A program made the position numbers and the translations under genes. A DNA stretch of 64,000 nt from an uncultured Candidatus Saccharibacteria bacterium (GTDB lineage Bacteria; Patescibacteriota; Minisyncoccia; Phycocordibacterales; UBA9973): the NCBI GenBank assembly GCA_964599225.1, contig CAZRDO010000001.1, positions 15,153 through 79,152 of the forward strand, written 5' to 3'. The notes under the pieces were generated by a model. That model was not told the origin of the DNA and made no database searches. It saw nothing but the letters and a program-made list of their open reading frames with translations. Shown here one piece after another: positions 4,142 through 52,139 of the stretch (position 1 is the stretch's first letter; the number at the start of each line of letters is the position of its first letter).

Positions 4142-5369
4142 AATGATTCTTCACGTTGATGGCGACGGATTCTTTGCTTACTGCGAAATGGCAGCCTACC
4201 CGGCGCTTCGTGGGAAGCCTGTGGCAGTGGGTGCTGAGCGTGGTATTGTCACTGCTTCAAGCTACCCGGCTAAGCGTATGGGAGTGACGCGAGGGTTACC
4301 TATGTTTAAACTACGTAAAGAATTTCCTAGTGTAACCGTGCTCCCGTCACACTTCGAACTCTACGAAGCCTACTCAGCAAAGCTCTATGGAGTCCTCACG
4401 CGTCACAGTGATAGAGTTGAACGCTACAGTATCGACGAGTGCTTTGCAGTACTTGAAGATAATGGTGAGGATTGGGATATGAGGCTCCGTGCAATCAAGA
4501 CAGAGGTGCAGGAGGATTTAGGAATCACCTTTTCATTTGGCTTAGCAGAGACAAAGTCACTGGCGAAACTCGCCTCGAAATGGCAGAAGCCTGATGGTGC
4601 GACAGTTATCCGTTCTGGAGAAGAAAGGTTATACCTTGAAGGTACACCAATTGGGAAAATTTGGGGTATTGGTAGGCGAACTGCACAAGTGTGTCTCGAG
4701 CGAGGCATTCGTACCGCACTTGATTTGCGGAGTCTCACACTCCAGGATGTCATGCAGTATTTCTCTCTACCTATTGTCGAAATTTGGCATGAACTTGGTG
4801 GGATACCTATGCATGATGTAGGTAATAATGATGAATCTCGTAAATCGCTTCAAGCCACCCGTACGTTTCCTAAAATACGTGGCGATGCATCAGCGGTTTT
4901 TTCAGAACTCTCATACAACACTGAAGTAGTGACAGCGCGGGCAAGAGAAGAAGGGCTTTTTGCACGAGCGGGCAATATATTTTTAAAAACTAATGATTTC
5001 CGCTACTATACACGGGAGTTTGTGCTACCCGAATACAGTGCTGATCCCAAAGAACTCCTTGCGGTAATTGAGCCAATATTCCAGGAGCTTTATAAACCAG
5101 ATGTCTATTATCGAGCTACTGGCATTACACTCAGTGGTTTACGCGAAGAAGATGAGATAGCACGAGATTTATTTGGCGCACGGGAAGCTAAGCTCAAATC
5201 TGATACATCGTTTCTCACGGCGCTTGATAGCGTACATGAGCGCTTTGGTACTCATGCGCTTTTCCTTGGTTCAAGTTTGGGGGCAGTGGCGAGAAGGGAA
5301 GATACTGTCAGTGTGACTGATAGGTATATTCCAGGATTACCGTATCCGTATTTAGGGGAGGTGGTGTAA
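4131..5369 (+). CDS. dinB: DNA polymerase IV (Y-family, DinB)
   Basis: ILHVDGDGFFAYCEM…YSIDECFAVLED catalytic motifs of Y-family polymerases, 412 aa. Confidence 0.88.
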   Translation: MAGKMILHVDGDGFFAYCEMAAYPALRGKPVAVGAERGIVTASSYPAKRMGVTRGLPMFKLRKEFPSVTVLPSHFELYEAYSAKLYGVLTRHSDRVERYSIDECFAVLEDNGEDWDMRLRAIKTEVQEDLGITFSFGLAETKSLAKLASKWQKPDGATVIRSGEERLYLEGTPIGKIWGIGRRTAQVCLERGIRTALDLRSLTLQDVMQYFSLPIVEIWHELGGIPMHDVGNNDESRKSLQATRTFPKIRGDASAVFSELSYNTEVVTARAREEGLFARAGNIFLKTNDFRYYTREFVLPEYSADPKELLAVIEPIFQELYKPDVYYRATGITLSGLREEDEIARDLFGAREAKLKSDTSFLTALDSVHERFGTHALFLGSSLGAVARREDTVSVTDRYIPGLPYPYLGEVV

Positions 5370-7148: not shown

Positions 7149-8153
7149 TTATTTGGAGGACCGGGGACCAGGCGATGGAGGTATAGGTCTTTCAATCGGA
7201 CCACGATTATTAGGAAATTGACCTGGTCTTGCTGGTAACTGAACTATAGGCTGTTGTTGAACTACTTTATACATTCCCTTACCTTGATAATTTTCAAAAA
7301 TCTTAAAGGCTGGAGTTATAAGAAAAGTTAATGTAACTGTATAATTTATATCTTGTATTATTGATTCAAGTGATGGGTTACATTCACTTCCTTTCCTTAC
7401 CTCAACTAATCTTTTTTTAAGCTCATCAATATCAATTAGGCGTCCATGGGATAGATGTCTATCTCCTGCAAGAAATTTACTAGCTACACTAGCCTTGTTT
7501 TTTGCTCTAGGCTTTCCTTTTAACATATAGTCAGCTAACCATTGCTTAACTAGCGTTTCTGTGAGAGCGAGTGCATTCTTACATTCTGTTAAAAGAGAAG
7601 GTCCGTACTGTTGTAAAATTGGCAACCAAGCTGTAATGAAATCCTTATTTCTTTTGAGTTCTTCTTTGGCAGTTTGAAATTGTTTCAATATTGCATGGGC
7701 AGGACTCAATTGTTTTCCATTGATAATCATCTGTGGATCTGTAGGACCAAGTTCGGCATATTCACCAACAATAATTTCATCTCCTGACATAGCAAGCATA
7801 GTTGCAGCACTTTTAGCTATACTTGGAATAATAAACCTAATATTTTTAAATCTAGATCTTAGAAGCTTAACAATAGACTCAGTTGCTTCAGGTGATCCGC
7901 CAGGACTATGAAGTATTACATCAAGATTATCTCCACTGATATCCCTTAACACCTCAAAAAATCCATCCCTATCTCCAAGATTTATAGAAGTATCACCACC
8001 AGCAAGTTGCGCTTTTTTGGCGTTAAACATTTCAACTGCATACAAAATGCATGGCCTACCAGTCATCTGTGAAAGCTCCGCAAGCTTTCCTCTTCTTACA
8101 AGATCAATGTTACCAGAAGCTACCTGAGCATTTAGTTGTTCCCATGTTGCCAT
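7149..8153 (-). CDS. ClpP/crotonase-fold serine protease, SDH (serine dehydrogenase proteinase)/S49-like, with Pro-rich C-terminal tail
   Basis: ILYAVEMFN…DVILHSPGGSPEATESIV…FIIPSIAKSAATMLAMSGDEIIVGE resembles the SDH_sah / SppA-ClpP clan. The C-terminal 35 aa are P/G/Q-rich low complexity. Confidence 0.5.
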   Translation of the reverse strand: MATWEQLNAQVASGNIDLVRRGKLAELSQMTGRPCILYAVEMFNAKKAQLAGGDTSINLGDRDGFFEVLRDISGDNLDVILHSPGGSPEATESIVKLLRSRFKNIRFIIPSIAKSAATMLAMSGDEIIVGEYAELGPTDPQMIINGKQLSPAHAILKQFQTAKEELKRNKDFITAWLPILQQYGPSLLTECKNALALTETLVKQWLADYMLKGKPRAKNKASVASKFLAGDRHLSHGRLIDIDELKKRLVEVRKGSECNPSLESIIQDINYTVTLTFLITPAFKIFENYQGKGMYKVVQQQPIVQLPARPGQFPNNRGPIERPIPPSPGPRSSK

Positions 8154-37384: not shown

Positions 37385-37981
37385 TTGTATAATAGACATA
37401 CAATGAAAGATGAAGATACAAAAAATGAATTAAATCCTGAGGAAGATGACGATGTGGTTGAATTAGTCTTTAATGACGACGGGGAGGAAGATCTCAAAGC
37501 GACACTGAAGAAATTCAGAGCTGATCTAAAGGCTTGTCGTAAAGAGAAGGAAGAATATCTGGCTCAACTTCAGCGTGAACGGGCAGATTTCATAAACTAT
37601 AAAAAGGAAGAGGACTCACGATTTAAGCGAAGCATTGAATACAATCAAGAGCGCTTTATCAGTGATCTTCTTCCTGTGCTTGATTCATATGATATGGCTT
37701 TCTCGAACAAAGAAGCCTGGGAGAAAGTAGATAAGAATTGGCGCATGGGCGTGGAGTATATTCACCAGCAAATTTTGAAAGTACTCGCTGAGTATGGCGT
37801 CACACCAATTGAAGTAAAAATAGGGGACGCTTTTGACCATAATATTCACGAACCGATTGAAAATACTGAAACTGCTGATGTCTCACAGAGTAATACAATA
37901 TCAGAAATTACACAGTCAGGTTATAAAGTAGGAGAACGGGTACTTCGTCCTGCCAGAGTAAAAGTTTACAAGAGTACTTAG
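37385..37981 (+). CDS. grpE: nucleotide exchange factor GrpE
   Basis: Coiled-coil N-terminus and the GrpE core (…ERADFINYKKEEDSRFKRSIEYNQERFISDLLPVLDSYDMA…). Confidence 0.88.
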   Translation: MYNRHTMKDEDTKNELNPEEDDDVVELVFNDDGEEDLKATLKKFRADLKACRKEKEEYLAQLQRERADFINYKKEEDSRFKRSIEYNQERFISDLLPVLDSYDMAFSNKEAWEKVDKNWRMGVEYIHQQILKVLAEYGVTPIEVKIGDAFDHNIHEPIENTETADVSQSNTISEITQSGYKVGERVLRPARVKVYKST

Positions 37982-38505
37982 CTGAAGAAGGTCTTTGAGA
38001 GCCCAGTTAGGGTCTCAGAATCAACAGTGCTTGATAGGATAATTATCATTTCCGATGATAACCCCAGATCTCTTTTTATGTTTTCAAACAAATGTTCATA
38101 AGGGTATGGAGAAATCCAGACAGAATTTTTAAGCATCACAAAACCAGCCTTTTTAAGTAAATAGCGAAGGCTTTCACGTTCATCTTTTCGACTCTCAGGT
38201 AGATCTAAGAGTATAATCCGCCATTTACCATCCCATTCATTCAAAAGTGAATTCTTAGTCGTAAGTTTAAGGCTATTGGCTTTAACTCGGCCAGTTTTAG
38301 AAAGTCTGGCATATTCATTTTGACCTGATGATATCGACTCAATTAAGCCGGAGTCAGTAAGATTTGAAAGTGAGCGATTTATAGCATAAACCTGCTTCTG
38401 CGTTGGCTTTTGTACTACTTTTTTGACCAAGGTAGGCAAAGAAACAGCCCTGCTTTCGGAGAGGATTTTTATGATTTCCTTTGAAATTTCAGGCTTTTTC
38501 TTCAT
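37978..38505 (-). CDS. winged-helix transcriptional regulator with PaaX-C/Cas2-like C-terminal domain
   Basis: N-terminal wHTH (…VSLPTLVKKVVQKPTQKQVYAINRSLSNLTDSGLI). C-terminal WDGKWRIILLDLPE…LRYLLKKAGFVMLKNSVWISP pattern. Convergent with grpE (4-nt overlap) and divergent from the dnaK unit. Confidence 0.45.
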   Translation of the reverse strand: MKKKPEISKEIIKILSESRAVSLPTLVKKVVQKPTQKQVYAINRSLSNLTDSGLIESISSGQNEYARLSKTGRVKANSLKLTTKNSLLNEWDGKWRIILLDLPESRKDERESLRYLLKKAGFVMLKNSVWISPYPYEHLFENIKRDLGLSSEMIIILSSTVDSETLTGLSKTFFS

Positions 38506-43416: not shown

Positions 43417-44448
43417 ATGAATACAAAGAAAATACGAGTTGCGATTAATGGCTTCGGACGCATTGGCCGAGCATTTCTTAAGCTCGCCTGGGAAAGATCA
43501 GAAATTGAGATTGTTGCGGTTAATGACCTTGGTTCAATTGAGAGCCTCGCATACTTACTTAAACACGACACAGTCTACCGAACATGGGGGCATGAAGTTA
43601 CAGTTCTCGGAACTGATTTAGTCATTGATGGGAAAACAGTTAAATTTATTTCTGAGAAAGACACGACAAAACTCCCATGGCGCGATCTCTCGATCGATGT
43701 AGTCGTTGAATCGACTGGTCTCTTTACTGCTTTTGATAAGGCACAATTCCATATCGACAATGGCGCGAAGAAAGTTGTCATTTCAGCACCAGCAAAGGAA
43801 GGGGATAACGCTGGAGTAAAAGGTGAGACAATATTACTCGGGGTAAATGAAGACAAATTCGGTACCTGCGATATTACTTCAAACGCTTCATGTACGACGA
43901 ATGCCGCGAGTCCTCTTATTGCGATTCTCCATGAAGCTATTGGTATCGAGAAAGCAATTCTCAATACAGTACATGGTTATACCGCGAGCCAATCGCTTGT
44001 TGATGGGCCAAGTAAGAAAGACCTTCGTGAGGGCCGTGCAGCTGCCCAGAATATCGTACCGAGCTCAACTGGGGCTGCCATTGCAGTCACCAAAGCTTTC
44101 CCTGAGCTCACAGGCCTCTTCGATGGTATCTCTATCCGTGTGCCTGTACCTGCTGGTTCAATCGTCGATGTGACATTTATTGCTAAGCGTCCTACAACTG
44201 CAGAAGAAGTGAATGGAATTCTTACTAAGGCTTCAAATGACCCGCGCTGGAAGAATATATTTGCAGTTACTAATGAACCACTTGTCTCCTCTGACATTCT
44301 TGGTAATCCTCACGCTTCAATCGCTGACCTCGCCATGACACGAGTGGTGGATGGTAATCTTGTGAAAGTCATGGGTTGGTATGATAATGAAATGGGGTAT
44401 ACAGCTACTCTCGTCGATCATGTCATCAAGACAGGGAAGACTATCTAG
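43417..44448 (+). CDS. gap: glyceraldehyde-3-phosphate dehydrogenase
   Basis: INGFGRIGR NAD site and ASCTTNA catalytic Cys motif, 343 aa. Confidence 0.95.
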   Translation: MNTKKIRVAINGFGRIGRAFLKLAWERSEIEIVAVNDLGSIESLAYLLKHDTVYRTWGHEVTVLGTDLVIDGKTVKFISEKDTTKLPWRDLSIDVVVESTGLFTAFDKAQFHIDNGAKKVVISAPAKEGDNAGVKGETILLGVNEDKFGTCDITSNASCTTNAASPLIAILHEAIGIEKAILNTVHGYTASQSLVDGPSKKDLREGRAAAQNIVPSSTGAAIAVTKAFPELTGLFDGISIRVPVPAGSIVDVTFIAKRPTTAEEVNGILTKASNDPRWKNIFAVTNEPLVSSDILGNPHASIADLAMTRVVDGNLVKVMGWYDNEMGYTATLVDHVIKTGKTI

Positions 44449-44449
44449 T

Positions 44450-44665
44450 ATGGAAACAATCTACGTAAAACTCTTAGATGAAGGAACTGAAGTATTTAGA
44501 CCAGTACCTTCAGTCGAAGTAGAAACCAATGTATATAAACTAGGTAGTTTAGAATCAACTGAAGGTGATGAAAAATGGGAATTTGAGCCAGGAAGTATAG
44601 TAACTGTAGAGAATCGAATTTTAGGTGATGAATCAGTTCCTGTTGCGATTAAGTTGGTATCGTAA
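44450..44665 (+). CDS. small hypothetical protein (72 aa) inserted immediately after gap
   Basis: METIYVKLLDEGTEVFRPVP… begins 2 nt after the gap stop and ends inside the duplicated gap-3' fragment. Confidence 0.4.
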   Translation: METIYVKLLDEGTEVFRPVPSVEVETNVYKLGSLESTEGDEKWEFEPGSIVTVENRILGDESVPVAIKLVS

Positions 44666-44730
44666 TGAATTAGCATATACAGCTACCCTTATAGAGCATG
44701 TTATTAAGACAGGTAACCAAATAAAATAAT
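44652..44730 (+). pseudogene. diverged duplicate of the gap 3' end (C-terminal ~20 codons only)
   Basis: Translates as …NELAYTATLIEHVIKTGNQIK*, versus the authentic gap end …NEMGYTATLVDHVIKTGKTI*. About 70 % nucleotide identity to 44381-44448. Confidence 0.6.
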
Positions 44731-45222
44731 ATGGAAGATATAACAAAAAACCCAGGACAAATTATAGAGGAAAAATTTAAAAAACTTTTTAACTCTAAAT
44801 ACACTATTAAAGATGGTGACTCAGTTTGTGAAGTAGAGAAAAACCTTGTACAAACCTTCGAAAAAAATAATTTTATTGCCTGTATTTTTACTGAAAGATT
44901 TAATATTAAAGCACTTAAAGATGATGGTACCTGGAATTATATTGTTGTAGTAAATGTAGAGAATAATAAATATGGAGAAACTGAACATGATGACGACGCT
45001 AAAGAAATAATCGAACAATCTGAGGAGACCCACGGAAAATTAGAAACTAGGCCTTCAATAACATACTCTGAAATTATAGACTTAAAAAGCGATACGAGAA
45101 ACTCGAACAAAGTTCACGTAACGATTAAAATGGTGGATGGTTCAGTAAAGACAGAGACCATTAAAATTGATCCTGATAGTGATTTTAATAGCAAGACGGA
45201 AGATTCTGATCAAAAATGGTAA
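44731..45222 (+). CDS. hypothetical acidic protein (163 aa) in low-GC islet
   Basis: Intact ORF, very AT-rich codon usage compared with neighbouring housekeeping genes. Confidence 0.4.
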   Translation: MEDITKNPGQIIEEKFKKLFNSKYTIKDGDSVCEVEKNLVQTFEKNNFIACIFTERFNIKALKDDGTWNYIVVVNVENNKYGETEHDDDAKEIIEQSEETHGKLETRPSITYSEIIDLKSDTRNSNKVHVTIKMVDGSVKTETIKIDPDSDFNSKTEDSDQKW

Positions 45223-45413
45223 AATATTATTGAGACTGTCAAGAAATAATAATTTTACTGAATCTCAAATCGAAAGTTTGATAACTAAGCTTCGGAGCCT
45301 AATTCCAGACGAAAACCACATTCCGTAAGGATAGAGAGATAAAGAATTTAATTGATGAGTATGAGAAAAATATTTAATTATCATTTTAACCATCTTTAAT
45401 AAAATTTGAATAT

Positions 45414-45647
45414 ATGTCAAAAAGATTAAAGATATTGCTAATAACTGCCGCACTTATTGTAGTAGCGTCTCTGCCTATAATCCCAAAACAGATAGCCACA
45501 GGAGATGTGATTCCATGCTCAAATGAAGAGTCGGACAGACAGTCATGGAATGGCGGACTACCATACATCCCTATCTGTTATAGGGAGTCTAAAATTTTTG
45601 TGAGTGCCTTCGATTATTTTATTAAATGGAATAATATTTCGTTATAA
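45414..45647 (+). CDS. small secreted/membrane-anchored Cys-containing peptide A
   Basis: 77 aa with an N-terminal hydrophobic segment (ILLITAALIVVASLPII) and a short Cys-containing ectodomain. Confidence 0.4.
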   Translation: MSKRLKILLITAALIVVASLPIIPKQIATGDVIPCSNEESDRQSWNGGLPYIPICYRESKIFVSAFDYFIKWNNISL

Positions 45648-45654
45648 AAATACT

Positions 45655-45939
45655 ATGTTAATTTTTGCTATTTTAATAATCGTAATACTAATTTTAGTAT
45701 TGCCATTCAAAAAGTCACGGAGCTTTAAGTTCTCTCTCCTGGCTATAAGTATCCTTTTAGCTATCTTTTTTGTTAGATGCATACCAGTAGCCCAGGATTT
45801 AAGCTTTTGTGAAGGAGATTGCCCAAAAACACAAAAAACTACTATAATGGGATACATCGTGAAATTGGTAGACAAGGGCTATCCTGAACCTTATGTCTAT
45901 ATGCCTGGTGAGTCAGATGGCAAAAGATTGCCTATATAA
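45655..45939 (+). CDS. small membrane-anchored Cys-containing peptide B
   Basis: About 94 aa from MLIFAILIIVILILVLPF, with two hydrophobic segments and an FCEGDCP motif. Confidence 0.4.
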   Translation: MLIFAILIIVILILVLPFKKSRSFKFSLLAISILLAIFFVRCIPVAQDLSFCEGDCPKTQKTTIMGYIVKLVDKGYPEPYVYMPGESDGKRLPI

Positions 45940-45957
45940 TAATTAATTTACATTCAA

Positions 45958-46191
45958 ATGATCAAAACAGTCATCATTATTGCAATAGTCGCACTTGGTT
46001 GGTACTCATGGACTCATCCGATCATCCCATACAAAGGTGAGAAGATAACTCTGGCTTCAATTATTAAGCCGCTCATCGAAAACCATACCGTTGAAGTTGG
46101 TTGTACGATGGAAGCTAAGATTTGTCCTGATGGCTCAGCAGTCGGTCGCAGTGGCCCATTGTGCGAATTTGAAAAGTGTCCAGGAGAATAG
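45958..46191 (+). CDS. small membrane-anchored Cys-motif peptide C
   Basis: 77 aa, N-terminal TM helix, then …GCTMEAKICPDGSAVGRSGPLCEFEKCPGE. Confidence 0.45.
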   Translation: MIKTVIIIAIVALGWYSWTHPIIPYKGEKITLASIIKPLIENHTVEVGCTMEAKICPDGSAVGRSGPLCEFEKCPGE

Positions 46192-46247
46192 AGGCTCAGA
46201 GATAGACACTTATCCTAGTCATTAAATTAATAATTAGACCTACTAAA

Positions 46248-46430
46248 ATGTCGGAAAGAACGAAAATAATTCTCTTTGGGATTGCAATTCTACTGCTTAT
46301 CTATTTTTTCGTTCCAATTGTATCGGTCTCTAATAACTGTCAGGACTTTGCTGGACCAGGATCATCTTCTTGTGAAATAGAAACCACTTGGGTACCATTG
46401 TATAAATGCCACGCTATTACTACTTGTTAG
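46248..46430 (+). CDS. small membrane-anchored Cys-motif peptide D
   Basis: 60 aa, N-terminal TM helix, then NNCQDFAGPGSSSCEIETTWVPLYKCHAITTC. Shares a C-x-D-x-x-G-x-x-S-x-C spacing with peptide C. Confidence 0.45.
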   Translation: MSERTKIILFGIAILLLIYFFVPIVSVSNNCQDFAGPGSSSCEIETTWVPLYKCHAITTC

Positions 46431-46448: not shown

Positions 46449-46931
46449 ATGAAAATTTACATTGGAGCAGATCATGCAGGGTATACACTCAAGGGCCTTC
46501 TCAAAGCCTATTTGAGCGAATTAGGGTATGAAGTAGAAGATAAAGGGGCATTTGAATTCGTTGAGCATGATGACTACCCTGATTATGTGAGCGCTGTTAC
46601 AGAATCAGTTCTAGGTACGCCTGGAAGTTTTGGTATTGTGCTCTGTGGCACAGGAGAAGGCGAGATTATGGCAGCCAATAGAGTTCCTGGTATTAGAGCT
46701 GCACTTTTCTATGGCCCAATGCTACCAAAAAGTCCCGTGGAAATTAACGGCCGAGAGAGTACTGATCCGTATGAAATTGTGAAGCTCGCCCGACTCCACA
46801 ATGATGCAAATATTCTTGCACTCTCAGCTCGCTTTATTAGTGAGGATGAAGCGCGAGAGGCAATTCGGGTATTCCTCGAAACTAAATTCTTGAACGAAGA
46901 GCGTCATGTTCGAAGGCTTTCAAAATTCTAA
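46449..46931 (+). CDS. rpiB: ribose-5-phosphate isomerase B
   Basis: MKIYIGADHAGYTLK…VLCGTGEGEIMAANRVPGIRAAL. Confidence 0.88.
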   Translation: MKIYIGADHAGYTLKGLLKAYLSELGYEVEDKGAFEFVEHDDYPDYVSAVTESVLGTPGSFGIVLCGTGEGEIMAANRVPGIRAALFYGPMLPKSPVEINGRESTDPYEIVKLARLHNDANILALSARFISEDEAREAIRVFLETKFLNEERHVRRLSKF

Positions 46932-49471: not shown

Positions 49472-49735
49472 ATGTTTTACGTATACATACTCAAAAGTGA
49501 AATAGATAATGAACTATATATTGGCTCAACAAATGATCTAAGACGTAGGATTAAAGAGCACAATGAAGGCAAGAGTTTTTCTACACAATATAGAAGACCA
49601 TTTATTTTAATCTATTACGAAGCATATAGGGATGAGAGTGACGCAAGGAAAAAAGAAGCCTCATTAAAACTTCGTGGCAGTTCTCGTTTCCATTTGAAAC
49701 AGAGGATTATTAATTCACTTATAGCTAAAAAATAA
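49472..49735 (+). CDS. GIY-YIG domain small nuclease, copy 2
   Basis: MFYVYILKSE…LYIGSTNDLRRRI…RRPFILIYYEA. Paralog of the 3878..4141 gene with an identical RRPFILIYYEA block. Confidence 0.7.
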   Translation: MFYVYILKSEIDNELYIGSTNDLRRRIKEHNEGKSFSTQYRRPFILIYYEAYRDESDARKKEASLKLRGSSRFHLKQRIINSLIAKK

Positions 49736-50623
49736 GTGTGCGGGTATAATTACAAAATGTATTTGTCCGACTCCAAAATTAAAGAACTTGAGCTCACAGC
49801 AAATTCCATTCGCGAATCGATAATCAAAATGCTACTGGAAGCGGGAAGTGGTCATACTGCTGGACCCCTTGGCATGACTGATATCTTCACCCTCCTTTTC
49901 TTTCATGTACTCAAACATGATGCAAAGAATCCTTCGTGGGATGAGCGCGATCGCGTAGTGCTCTCAAATGGTCATATTTGTCCGGTCTATTATGCGACCA
50001 TGGCCCATGCTGCATATTTCCCTATAGAGGAGCTTCAGACACTGCGTAAATTTGGCTCACGACTCCAAGGTCACCCGCACAGAGAATTTATGCCATGGCT
50101 TGAGACAAGTTCTGGACCACTCGGAAGCGGACTCTCTCAAGCAGTCGGCATGGCACTTGCAATTAGAATTGATGAAGGCAATAGTTCTGACAAATTTGTG
50201 TACTGTCTCACCTCTGATGGCGAACACGATGAGGGTAATACCTGGGAGGGGATTTTATTGGCGGCTAAGGAAAAACTTCGAAATTTAATTGTCATCGTTG
50301 ATCGCAATAATATCCAGATTGACGGCTTTACTGAAGATATTATGCCGCTAGATGACATGGCCAAAAAATATGAGAGCTTTAATTGGCATGTGCAGGAAGT
50401 TGATGGGCATAATTTTGAAGCGCTCAACGATGCCATCTTGAAAGCTAAAGCAGTGTACGAGAAACCTTCAGTCATAATTGCCCGCACAATCCCAGGCAAA
50501 GGCGTGAAAGAATTCGAACGAGATTTTCATTGGCATGGTAAAGCACCGAATAAAGATGAAGCGATGATGGCATTGAAAGAATTGCGGACCTTAGGTGGTA
50601 AAATTAAAAGCGAACATCAATAA
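49736..50623 (+). CDS. tkt: transketolase, N-terminal (TPP-binding) subunit
   Basis: …GSGHTAGPLGMTDIFTLLF…GHPH…LETSSGPLGSG…TSDGEHDEGNTWE. Start probably at 49757. Confidence 0.88.
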   Translation: MCGYNYKMYLSDSKIKELELTANSIRESIIKMLLEAGSGHTAGPLGMTDIFTLLFFHVLKHDAKNPSWDERDRVVLSNGHICPVYYATMAHAAYFPIEELQTLRKFGSRLQGHPHREFMPWLETSSGPLGSGLSQAVGMALAIRIDEGNSSDKFVYCLTSDGEHDEGNTWEGILLAAKEKLRNLIVIVDRNNIQIDGFTEDIMPLDDMAKKYESFNWHVQEVDGHNFEALNDAILKAKAVYEKPSVIIARTIPGKGVKEFERDFHWHGKAPNKDEAMMALKELRTLGGKIKSEHQ

Positions 50624-51146: not shown

Positions 51147-52139
51147 ATGCTTAATCCTGAACAAAAACTAAATCAGAAACTTTTCCTTGATGATGTCGAG
51201 CAGGTTCCTATTCGTAAAGGATTTGGCGAAGGCTTAGCTGAAGCCGGTGTGGATAATAAAAACATCGTTGCACTTTGTGCCGACCTTACTGAGAGTACCC
51301 AAATGCATCTTTTCAAAGATAAATTCCCAGAGCGATTTATTGAAGTCGGCGTGGCGGAGCAGAATCTTGTCACAGTTGCTTCAGGTATGGCAGCAATGGG
51401 GAAGCGAGCATTTGTCTCTTCATATGCCATGTTTAGTCCTGGACGCAACTGGGAGCAAATTAGAACGACTATTACCTATAACGATCGCGGAGTTGTGATC
51501 GTGGGCTCCCATGCTGGTATCTCAGTGGGACCAGACGGTGGTACGCACCAAGCAATTGAAGACATGGCGCTTATGAGAATACTTCCAAATATGATTGTCC
51601 TCTCACCCTCTGATGCAATTGAAGCCAAGAAAGCCACAATTGCCCTGGCAAAGATCAATACACCAACCTATTTGCGACTCGCTCGTGAAAAAACCCCAGT
51701 CATGACCACCACCGAGACACCATTTGAGATTGGTAAAGCACAGATTTTCTACCGCCCTGACGGTATTGCACATGTCGGTATTATTGCCACAGGAGCGCTT
51801 GTCCACAAGGCACTACTCGCCGCACGTGATCTTGAGAAAAAGGGAATTAAGGCACTTGTGGTGAATCTTGCGACAATAAAGCCACTTGATCACGAGACAA
51901 TACTTACTGTTGCCAAAGAAACTCGTAAAATTGTCACCGTCGAAGAGCATCAAATCGCTGGCGGAATGGGAAGTGCTGTAGCTGAATACTTAGCAAGCAT
52001 CTTTCCAGTACCAATTGAGTTTGTTGGAGTACACGACAAATATGGCCAGTCAGGCACACCAGCTGAACTTATTGAGCACTATGGTATGGGAAAGAATAAT
52101 ATTATTGAAGCCGTACAGAAAGTTATTGACCGAAATTAG
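51147..52139 (+). CDS. tkt: transketolase, C-terminal (pyrimidine-binding + C-terminal domain) subunit
   Basis: …FIEVGVAEQNLVTVASGMA…SHAGISVGPDGGTHQAIEDMALMR…. Confidence 0.88.
   Translation: MLNPEQKLNQKLFLDDVEQVPIRKGFGEGLAEAGVDNKNIVALCADLTESTQMHLFKDKFPERFIEVGVAEQNLVTVASGMAAMGKRAFVSSYAMFSPGRNWEQIRTTITYNDRGVVIVGSHAGISVGPDGGTHQAIEDMALMRILPNMIVLSPSDAIEAKKATIALAKINTPTYLRLAREKTPVMTTTETPFEIGKAQIFYRPDGIAHVGIIATGALVHKALLAARDLEKKGIKALVVNLATIKPLDHETILTVAKETRKIVTVEEHQIAGGMGSAVAEYLASIFPVPIEFVGVHDKYGQSGTPAELIEHYGMGKNNIIEAVQKVIDRN

Follow-up and report, generated by a model that had tools for sequence, protein, structure and literature searches.

A widespread four-cysteine module in one of four small membrane peptides encoded between gapA and rpiB

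A 64,000-nt stretch of DNA from an uncultured Candidatus Saccharibacteria bacterium (contig CAZRDO010000001.1 of assembly GCA_964599225.1, positions 15,153 to 79,152; hereafter ‘the window’) carries four small open reading frames (ORFs) on the + strand between gapA and rpiB. All four start with ATG: peptide A (45414-45647, 77 aa), peptide B (45655-45939, 94 aa, or 111 aa from a GTG upstream at 45604), peptide C (45958-46191, 77 aa) and peptide D (46248-46430, 60 aa), with inter-ORF gaps of 7-56 nt. The flanking genes are the conserved borders of the interval. On the left, gapA (43417-44448, + strand) encodes a GAPDH with 95-96% amino acid identity to relatives L084 and L085, the Pfam domains Gp_dh_N/C being recorded on the L084 ortholog; on the right, rpiB (46449-46931, + strand; PF02502 on its orthologs) encodes a product 89-91% identical to those of L084 and L002. 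We describe here that the conserved gene C encodes a membrane anchor joined to one copy of a widespread and strictly four-cysteine module, and that the interval around it is a slot of gene turnover.

The original prediction, made from the sequence alone, had described 45414-46430 as a cluster of four small membrane-anchored peptides of 60-94 aa. ORFs cover 92% of this interval, against a mean of 4% in composition-matched random sequence, where 92% was reached in 0 of 3000 trials. A random ORF at least as long as observed has a probability of P = 0.004 for the A interval and 0.009 for the D interval. Tiling and lengths are thus improbable at random, and the description of an ORF cluster holds. 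Hydropathy finds a hydrophobic N-terminal stretch in each peptide, and two in B. Cysteines lie at positions 35 and 55 in A; 42, 52 and 56 in B; 49, 56, 69 and 74 in C; and 31, 42, 54 and 60 in D, so that the predicted anchor plus two to four cysteines per peptide is borne out (the tails hold 2, 3, 4 and 4), as is the FCEGDCP motif of B at 45805-45825. By sequence reading, A to D have neither a lipobox ([LVI][ASTVI][GAS]C) nor a double-glycine leader, and Pfam and NCBIfam searches with the four peptides gave sub-threshold noise only (E at least 0.037). BLASTP and phmmer detect no significant similarity between any two of the peptides. The four peptide genes share no DNA repeats, and recent tandem duplication was rejected on this ground.

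The GC content at 45-46 kb is 0.33, compared with about 0.41 for the whole window. The remainder of the window is housekeeping in character (ribosomal proteins, RpoA, GrpE, DnaK, GatB, FtsZ/FtsA, MreB, PBP, AlaRS, transketolase and aldolase). Among 56 window ORFs scanned with Pfam there was neither an ABC exporter nor a leader peptidase, nor any modification enzyme or regulator, and an Rfam scan of the window found just two tRNAs, away from the cluster. Between 44300 and 46600 there are no terminator-like sites, and promoter-like sites occur at the level of shuffled sequence, which leaves the two scans uninformative. Given the short gaps and the lack of a terminator-like site, read-through transcription is the simplest inference, and A to D are probably read through together with the surrounding housekeeping genes.

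Peptide C comprises a signal anchor (residues 1-19), a 29-residue linker and one C-terminal four-cysteine module of 27 residues, CTMEAKICPDGSAVGRSGPLCEFEKCP (46102-46182, + strand), which follows the pattern C-x6-C-x12-C-x4-C-P. Orthologs of C are present in all five close relatives recovered from public assemblies (L002, L003, L084, L085 and L086). The gene lies directly upstream of rpiB in L084, L002 and L003. In L085 it lies directly downstream of a gene for a 126-aa membrane protein, and rpiB is not seen because the contig ends 64 nt after C; in L086 four small ORFs separate C from rpiB. By the Nei-Gojobori method, dN/dS is 0.02-0.16 for C, compared with 0.02-0.03 for GAPDH, 0.03-0.08 for RpiB and 0.33-0.48 for B; C is thus under purifying selection of the same strength as GAPDH and RpiB. 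In the final 41 codons of C, relatives compared in pairs show 4-17 synonymous and 0-1 non-synonymous codon differences. Identity to L086, a more distant relative, is 71% for C and 55% for RpiB.

In L003 (JGI 3300014059) the module has another setting. At 367-678 of this locus, 67 aa of QueD/PTPS (PF01242) are followed by KPLIENHTVEVG and the module, fused in frame and without a membrane anchor, with the module residues still 100% conserved. Nucleotide homology of L003 with the window begins at 46066, and a KPLIENH stretch in the linker of C (46066-46086, + strand) matches the QueD-module junction. The linker of C may be a relic of QueD, or recombination at this point may have produced the fusion in L003.

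A word-index search with C retrieved 36 homologs whose N-termini are unrelated but which all carry the same C-terminal block, CTMEAKICPDGSAVGRSGPxCEFxxCP; those with a named source belong to Moranbacteria, Ryanbacteria, Paceibacterota and ‘Patescibacteria group’. We defined the family by profiles A1 and A2 and scored A1 (33 positions) against 1.84 billion representatives of 50%-identity clusters. At E <= 1e-3 it matched 9,078 representatives, of which 5,461 also passed E <= 1e-10; one protein can hold up to about 12 copies in tandem. The four cysteines are retained in 564 of 564 modules extracted from retrieved proteins. D14, G15, V18, R20 and F27 are conserved at 92-99% and P31 at 87%, while position 8 is always D or E. 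The 6-12-4 spacing occurs in 368 of 488 modules, the others being off by one or two residues. C carries every one of these hallmarks: four cysteines at 6-12-4, an acidic residue 8, D14, G15, V18, R20, F27 and P31.

C scores 77.5 bits against the profile, compared with -1.0 for D, -1.4 for B and -1.5 for A. The latter are at the level of GAPDH, and A, B and D are therefore not members of the family. This removes the kinship between C and D that the original prediction had drawn from a shared C-x-D-x-x-G-x-x-S-x-C spacing. Between its second and third cysteines C reads C-P-D-G-S-A-V-G-R-S-G-P-L-C, i.e. C-PDGSAVGRSGPL-C, with 12 residues between the cysteines, whereas D reads C-Q-D-F-A-G-P-G-S-S-S-C, with 10.

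Conservation of the module resides in the peptide. Across 81 distinct module DNAs from unrelated loci, amino acid identity is 0.85, whereas third-position identity at identical residues is 0.40 (0.26 at random). Synonymous sites are thus near saturation, which indicates constraint on the peptide and not on a DNA cassette, and a mobile DNA cassette or repeat was rejected for the same reason. In ten multi-module proteins no Pfam model covered the repeats, and across 77 diverse single modules Pfam gave no recurrent family. A PDB sequence search with the module profile had a best E of 0.69, to an unrelated protein, and no description of the module was found in the literature searched. The module of C is a very large, strongly constrained family that is uncatalogued in Pfam, NCBIfam and PDB. 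The statement that none of the peptides matches a recognized family accordingly holds for curated libraries, with the qualification that C has a very large family outside them. Its members are found in Patescibacteria, Myxococcota, a diatom and a foraminifer, and such a cross-domain spread is unusual for a module otherwise centred on Patescibacteria. Proteins of the diatom Seminavis robusta (P0043, P0044, P0053), the foraminifer Rosalina sp. (P0089) and a Nannocystaceae bacterium (P0065) carry 3-12 tandem modules, and the source names of the diatom and foraminifer proteins include ‘chitinase’, ‘PKD’ and ‘receptor-like protein kinase’.

Sequence features indicate that the module is probably extracytoplasmic and membrane-proximal in its proteins. 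In the fetched loci, a hydrophobic segment precedes the first module in 83 of 90 module ORFs, with a median linker of 10 residues. At least 30 residues follow the module in 73 of the 90, and 16 end with the module, as C does. Among 263 distinct module proteins, about 28 have a lipobox signal ahead of the module, and one Nannocystaceae (Myxococcota) protein consists of a lipobox signal and three modules. The fused partners (Gmad2, LRR, Peptidase_M23, PKD with PG_binding_1, DUF333 and Kazal) are all of extracytoplasmic types; in one protein a polytopic DUF6512 is placed before the module. Kazal domains accompany the module in P0070 (by Pfam) and, by sequence reading, in P0029 and L122. Eukaryotic members are multi-module, with N-terminal hydrophobic leaders that read as signal peptides and with other cysteine-rich modules of extracellular type. 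Two or three module genes lie within a few kb at L129 (2128-6186), L099 (2799-4726) and L058 (9959-12302), with C-terminal domains that differ, which suggests local expansion of module-tagged surface proteins in some Patescibacteria loci.

From this probable location outside the cytoplasm we infer two disulfides, which in the predicted structures would staple a small beta-hairpin sheet. AlphaFold2 (AF2), run on a 77-sequence alignment, gave the same hairpin in all five models at a predicted local distance difference test score (pLDDT) of 74-77, and the best model from a shallower alignment had the same secondary structure. Such a module would be a compact, protease-resistant spacer or a binding unit. 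A pure scaffold role is possible, since structural reasons could account for R20, F27 and the D-G turn alike; a 77-aa protein of nothing other than anchor, linker and module argues for an activity of its own.

Peptide B has hydrophobic helices at 1-21 and 23-47, a basic loop KKSRSFK between them, a tail with F-C-E-G-D-C (Cys52 and Cys56; 45808-45822) and a C-terminal end PEPYVY..G.SDG. Syntenic orthologs lie in L084 (3565-3852; 95 aa, 44% identity, E 7e-21) and in L085 (3350-3544; 64 aa with the first helix missing, 48% identity, E 1e-23). They share an I-P-x-x-Q-[DN]-x-[ST]-[FL]-C-x3-C core, an amphipathic stretch and a P-E-P-Y-V-Y...G-x-[SW]-D tail. In a search of 5.8 billion proteins B matched itself only. 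Its orthologs, together with the dN/dS given above, identify B as a real, fast-evolving gene. Because of the basic loop between its helices, B is probably oriented N-out, with two helices and the C-x3-C tail outside.

A has a hydrophobic segment at residues 4-24 and a tail with its two cysteines, and is alone in its 90% cluster. D has a hydrophobic segment at 4-29 ahead of its four cysteines, and the same search of 5.8 billion proteins again returned a self-match only. D is missing from L002, L003 and L084, where the distance from C to rpiB is 58-59 nt compared with 257 nt in the window. Its weak reciprocal best match in L086 is the ORF that immediately follows C (4197-4370, 57 aa; E 4e-4 and 1.8e-3 in a set of 8,058 ORFs, 32% identity), in which one cysteine gap is 4 residues compared with 10 in D. 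A and D are candidates for microproteins with a single membrane pass that are young or diverge rapidly. None of A, B or D was found at 80 RpiB-anchored genome loci (best RpiB identity 61%), which are too distant; the closest species-representative RpiB, at 61% identity, comes from Nomurabacteria/Paceibacterota metagenome-assembled genomes.

The gapA-rpiB interval is a gene-turnover slot, and its content differs in every relative. The window has a 71-aa ORF, a displaced gapA 3′ end, a 163-aa acidic ORF and A to D. L084 has a 111-aa ORF, B and C; L085 an N-truncated B, the 126-aa membrane protein and C; L002 the 126-aa protein, within whose ORF the contig begins, and C; and L086 the 126-aa protein, C and four small anchored ORFs (57, 65, 52 and 167 aa). 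In L003 the upstream ORF is an alpha-amylase C-terminal part and not gapA, and the N-terminal half of QueD with the module stands directly upstream of rpiB. The extra ORFs of L086 (4197-5232) have N-termini such as MERRTKII and MSKRFKIN and C-x3-4-C pairs after the helix; small membrane peptides accumulate in the same slot in different lineages.

The upstream part of the slot in the window (44449-45413, + strand) holds two ORFs, a gapA 3′ remnant and a 191-nt spacer. The 71-aa ORF (44450-44665, + strand) has a strongly gene-like codon score of 0.43 and no Pfam family. The displaced gapA 3′ end (about 44650-44729, + strand) aligns with the gapA 3′ ends of relatives. It reflects a duplication of the last ~75 nt of gapA (44400-44438 versus 44678-44716, 79% identity, 278 nt apart), of which the downstream copy keeps the ancestral ending ..HVIKTGNQIK* found in L084 and L085. 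Together with this copy, the 71-aa ORF has the appearance of a small insertion that came with a replacement for the gene end. The 163-aa ORF (E163; 44731-45222, + strand) is acidic, non-hydrophobic, gene-like in codon score (0.375) and alone in its 90% cluster, with no Pfam family and no homolog in the fetched loci or viral contigs. Neither the 71-aa nor the 163-aa ORF was found in L084, L085 or L086, and E163 and F72 had no match in Pfam or NCBIfam. The islet has no blastn match in phages and the viral contigs hold no relatives of A or E163, and a phage or viral origin was rejected for these reasons. The original prediction had called the islet horizontally acquired. Its content does vary among the five relatives, but B and C are vertically inherited, no donor or mobile-element gene was found, and phage or viral similarity is lacking; the islet is a turnover slot and not a demonstrable horizontal acquisition.

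Taken together, we consider it likely that the locus holds four separate small genes in a turnover slot of a Patescibacteria chromosome (Paceibacteria/Nomurabacteria-like), and that one of them, C, is an anchor with a portable four-cysteine surface module. The N-terminal anchor of C would hold the 27-residue module just outside the cytoplasmic membrane, where it would most likely adopt the disulfide-stapled hairpin fold of the models. In most relatives the portable surface module is preceded by an anchor or lipoprotein signal and followed by an extracytoplasmic domain that is unrelated from protein to protein, and in some proteins of Myxococcota, the diatom and the foraminifer it forms tandem arrays; C carries it alone. 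B is a membrane peptide of two helices that evolves fast and whose C-x3-C tail is probably external, found only in the closest relatives of the window, and A and D may be peptides of a kind that come and go in the slot. The proposal of a disulfide-stabilised surface peptide family would then stand, probably, for C only, with its four-Cys module and thousands of homologs, and not for A, B or D.

There are observations that weigh against this reading. For codon usage, A, B and D score about 0 (A, -0.003), lower than true genes (+0.35 +/- 0.13) and higher than shadow ORFs (-0.21 +/- 0.16). No homolog of A was found by tblastn or phmmer in 165 loci, or in viral contigs, and the one homolog of D is of marginal significance. 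Conservation of cysteine spacing among homologs, on which the original prediction had staked its claim, is uneven: C has homologs with conserved spacing, B keeps C-x3-C and not its third cysteine (Cys42), the single weak homolog of D does not keep the spacing, and for A the 165 loci, viral contigs and 90% cluster gave no homologs to compare. A crude positive-inside count (K+R 0.93 before the helix versus 1.25 after) does not support an N-in/C-out orientation, and because this count is not decisive, the topology rests on the lipobox members and partner domains. Two points count against disulfides: the Pfam scans of window ORFs showed no thiol-disulfide oxidoreductase, and many Patescibacteria live without oxygen. 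The locus-derived module sample was seeded with exact peptide words such as CTMEAKIC, and its uniformity is therefore overstated. No conserved neighbour gene recurs around 80 module loci, the commonest family (5 of 80) being housekeeping, and genomic context thus gives no functional clue. A fold search with the module model gave no match, which says little because the module is tiny.

Alternative explanations can be set against the same evidence. One is that A and D, and possibly others, are non-functional, being chance or decaying ORFs in an AT-rich spacer (GC 0.32-0.37), where T-rich codons spell hydrophobic ‘anchors’. The lack of homologs of A in the sets searched, the self-match of D, its absence from three relatives and codon scores under the 5th percentile of true-gene chunks (0.15) are all consistent with this. 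However, the ORF lengths and tiling are improbable at random, the annotated frame of A, B and D is the best-scoring of six, and D has a reciprocal-best positional homolog in L086. B, moreover, has an equal codon score and is conserved with dN/dS below 1, which indicates that the low score is probably due to membrane-peptide composition; we regard the chance-ORF explanation as unlikely. It is also quite unlikely, in our judgement, that A to D are tandem paralogs diverged past recognition, as in a diversifying array of surface or immunity peptides, although the original prediction had called them tandem paralogs. L086 does have its run of small anchored ORFs, the first of which weakly matches D (E 4e-4) and the second ORF of L086 (E 0.018). 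N-termini look alike by eye (MSKRLKI/MSKRFKI/MSERTKI/MERRTKI), often followed by P-[IL]-[IV]-P and a cysteine pair, and B weakly resembles the 126-aa membrane protein of L085 (E 0.005). But a basic N-terminus with a hydrophobic run is a generic trait of signal anchors, the cysteine spacing of D is not that of its counterpart in L086, the C-module profile does not recognise D, and significant similarity and DNA repeats are both lacking among the four. Bacteriocins and immunity peptides, which the original prediction had also proposed, and precursors of ribosomally synthesized and post-translationally modified peptides (RiPPs) are barely credible: beyond small cysteine-containing peptides with hydrophobic leaders in tandem, the 56 window ORFs offer no exporter, leader peptidase, modification enzyme or regulator, there is no double-glycine leader, no neighbour is conserved around the module loci, and C belongs to a family of large multidomain surface proteins.

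The chemistry and activity of the module are open to other readings as well. Its four cysteines might bind metal (zinc, iron or copper) instead of forming disulfides. Four invariant cysteines within 27 residues, hosts that are often anaerobes, the lack of a Dsb-like gene among the window ORFs scanned, a positive-inside count compatible with a cytoplasmic location of some members, and the anchorless fusion to a cytoplasmic enzyme fragment in L003 all fit metal binding. We nevertheless strongly doubt it, as C-x6-C...C-x4-C has none of the CxxC knuckles of zinc ribbons, members have lipoprotein signals and extracytoplasmic partner domains, the eukaryotic members have apparent signal peptides and extracellular-type companions, and the AF2 hairpin is typical of disulfide-rich mini-domains. 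A broader possibility, which we think very unlikely, is that the module is an undescribed, ancient extracellular mini-domain of the candidate phyla radiation (CPR), Myxococcota and protists, with a specific conserved activity beyond that of a spacer. In one version, it may be a membrane-proximal protease-inhibitor or ligand-binding loop around R20/F27, a four-cysteine cousin of pacifastin. If so, CPR cells would display the module, alone or ahead of surface proteins, to protect their surface or dock it on host cells. A secondary reading, likewise very unlikely, is that the gapA-rpiB slot is a cradle of new membrane microproteins such as A and D, arising from T-rich spacer DNA.

Pacifastin (Pacifastin_I, PF05375; PDB 1KGM, 1GL1, 1KJ0) is the known family that invites the closest comparison. 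It has about 30-35 residues, is disulfide-rich and extracellular, as the module is predicted to be, and has a Gly-turn beta-hairpin followed by C-x4-C-P, an ending that in pacifastin carries the reactive site. It is defined by a six-Cys scaffold and an invariant Asn after Cys2 (C-N-x-C), and a 2026 paper (PMC13388995) reports that CPR and Myxobacteria have structure-only pacifastin-like domains, some of them in proteins of 77 aa. The module, by contrast, has four cysteines and no such core. The hhalign probability of a relationship is 0.1%, none of 77 modules matched Pacifastin_I, and there was no fold match; membership was rejected at the sequence, profile and fold levels. A canonical serine-protease inhibitor loop in a four-Cys relative would map C-E-F-x-x-C-P onto Cys5-Xaa-P1-P1′-Xaa-Cys6, with Phe as P1. 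The hairpin and C-x4-C-P ending, the co-occurring Kazal inhibitor domains (P0070, P0029, L122) and the pairing of CPR with Myxobacteria in the 2026 paper, which is the module's own odd taxonomy, speak for such a loop. Set against these are the four cysteines in place of six, the missing core, the failed profile comparisons and Phe27, which is 97% invariant, as a core residue would be. P1 is usually variable in inhibitor families, and an inhibitor-like mode of action is a possibility of very low probability.

Other families resemble the module in part. DUF333 (PF03891) and Kazal (PF00050) are short, cysteine-rich and extracytoplasmic modules, as the module of C probably is, and are present in the same proteins, but as separate domains after the module, and neither model matches it; DUF333 has a P-D-G-S turn ahead of a cysteine. 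The LDL-receptor class A repeat (LDLa) is small, disulfide-stapled and extracellular, as predicted for the module, with a C-x-D-G-S motif, and occurs singly or in tandem beside the membrane. It differs in its six cysteines, its ~40 residues and its D-x-S-D-E calcium cage, and Pfam Ldl_recept_a had no match in C or the 77 modules. A, B and D resemble bacterial single- or double-pass microproteins of variable loci (60-94 aa, anchored, with little or no conservation, in a turnover slot), without a link to any described small-protein family in Pfam or NCBIfam.

Small disulfide-rich surface modules are of a familiar kind, so the cluster itself is unsurprising, and the module of C is a new domain family of that kind and not a new kind of system. 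Its interest lies in being constrained like the neighbouring glycolytic enzyme and present in more than 9,000 clusters at 50% identity without a Pfam, NCBIfam or PDB model. Very many surface proteins of Patescibacteria bear it at their membrane-proximal end; these organisms are thought to rely on surface contact with hosts, and most of their surface proteome is unannotated. A minimal 77-aa carrier of a defined module would make it simpler to solve a structure, map disulfides and screen for binding, and the module would serve as an annotation tag. The locus is also a clean, small example of gene turnover within a housekeeping cluster, with ORF gain and loss, a gene-end duplication and a QueD-module fusion.

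Three further features lie elsewhere in the window. At 49472-49735, between a PIF1-type helicase gene and a transketolase N-terminal gene, lies an 87-aa GIY-YIG endonuclease ORF (PF01541, E 4e-18). L084 has no gene at this site, the helicase ending at 7154 and the transketolase starting at 7168, and the ORF is a second small lineage-specific insertion, possibly a homing endonuclease of the free-standing type. The transketolase itself is split into an N-terminal gene (49736-50623) and a pyrimidine-binding/C-terminal gene (51147-52139), with 523 nt between them; the corresponding gap of L084 holds an 83-aa ORF. Between grpE and dnaK, a 174-aa ORF on the - strand (37978-38505) carries a PaaX central Cas2-like domain (PF20803, E 2e-21).

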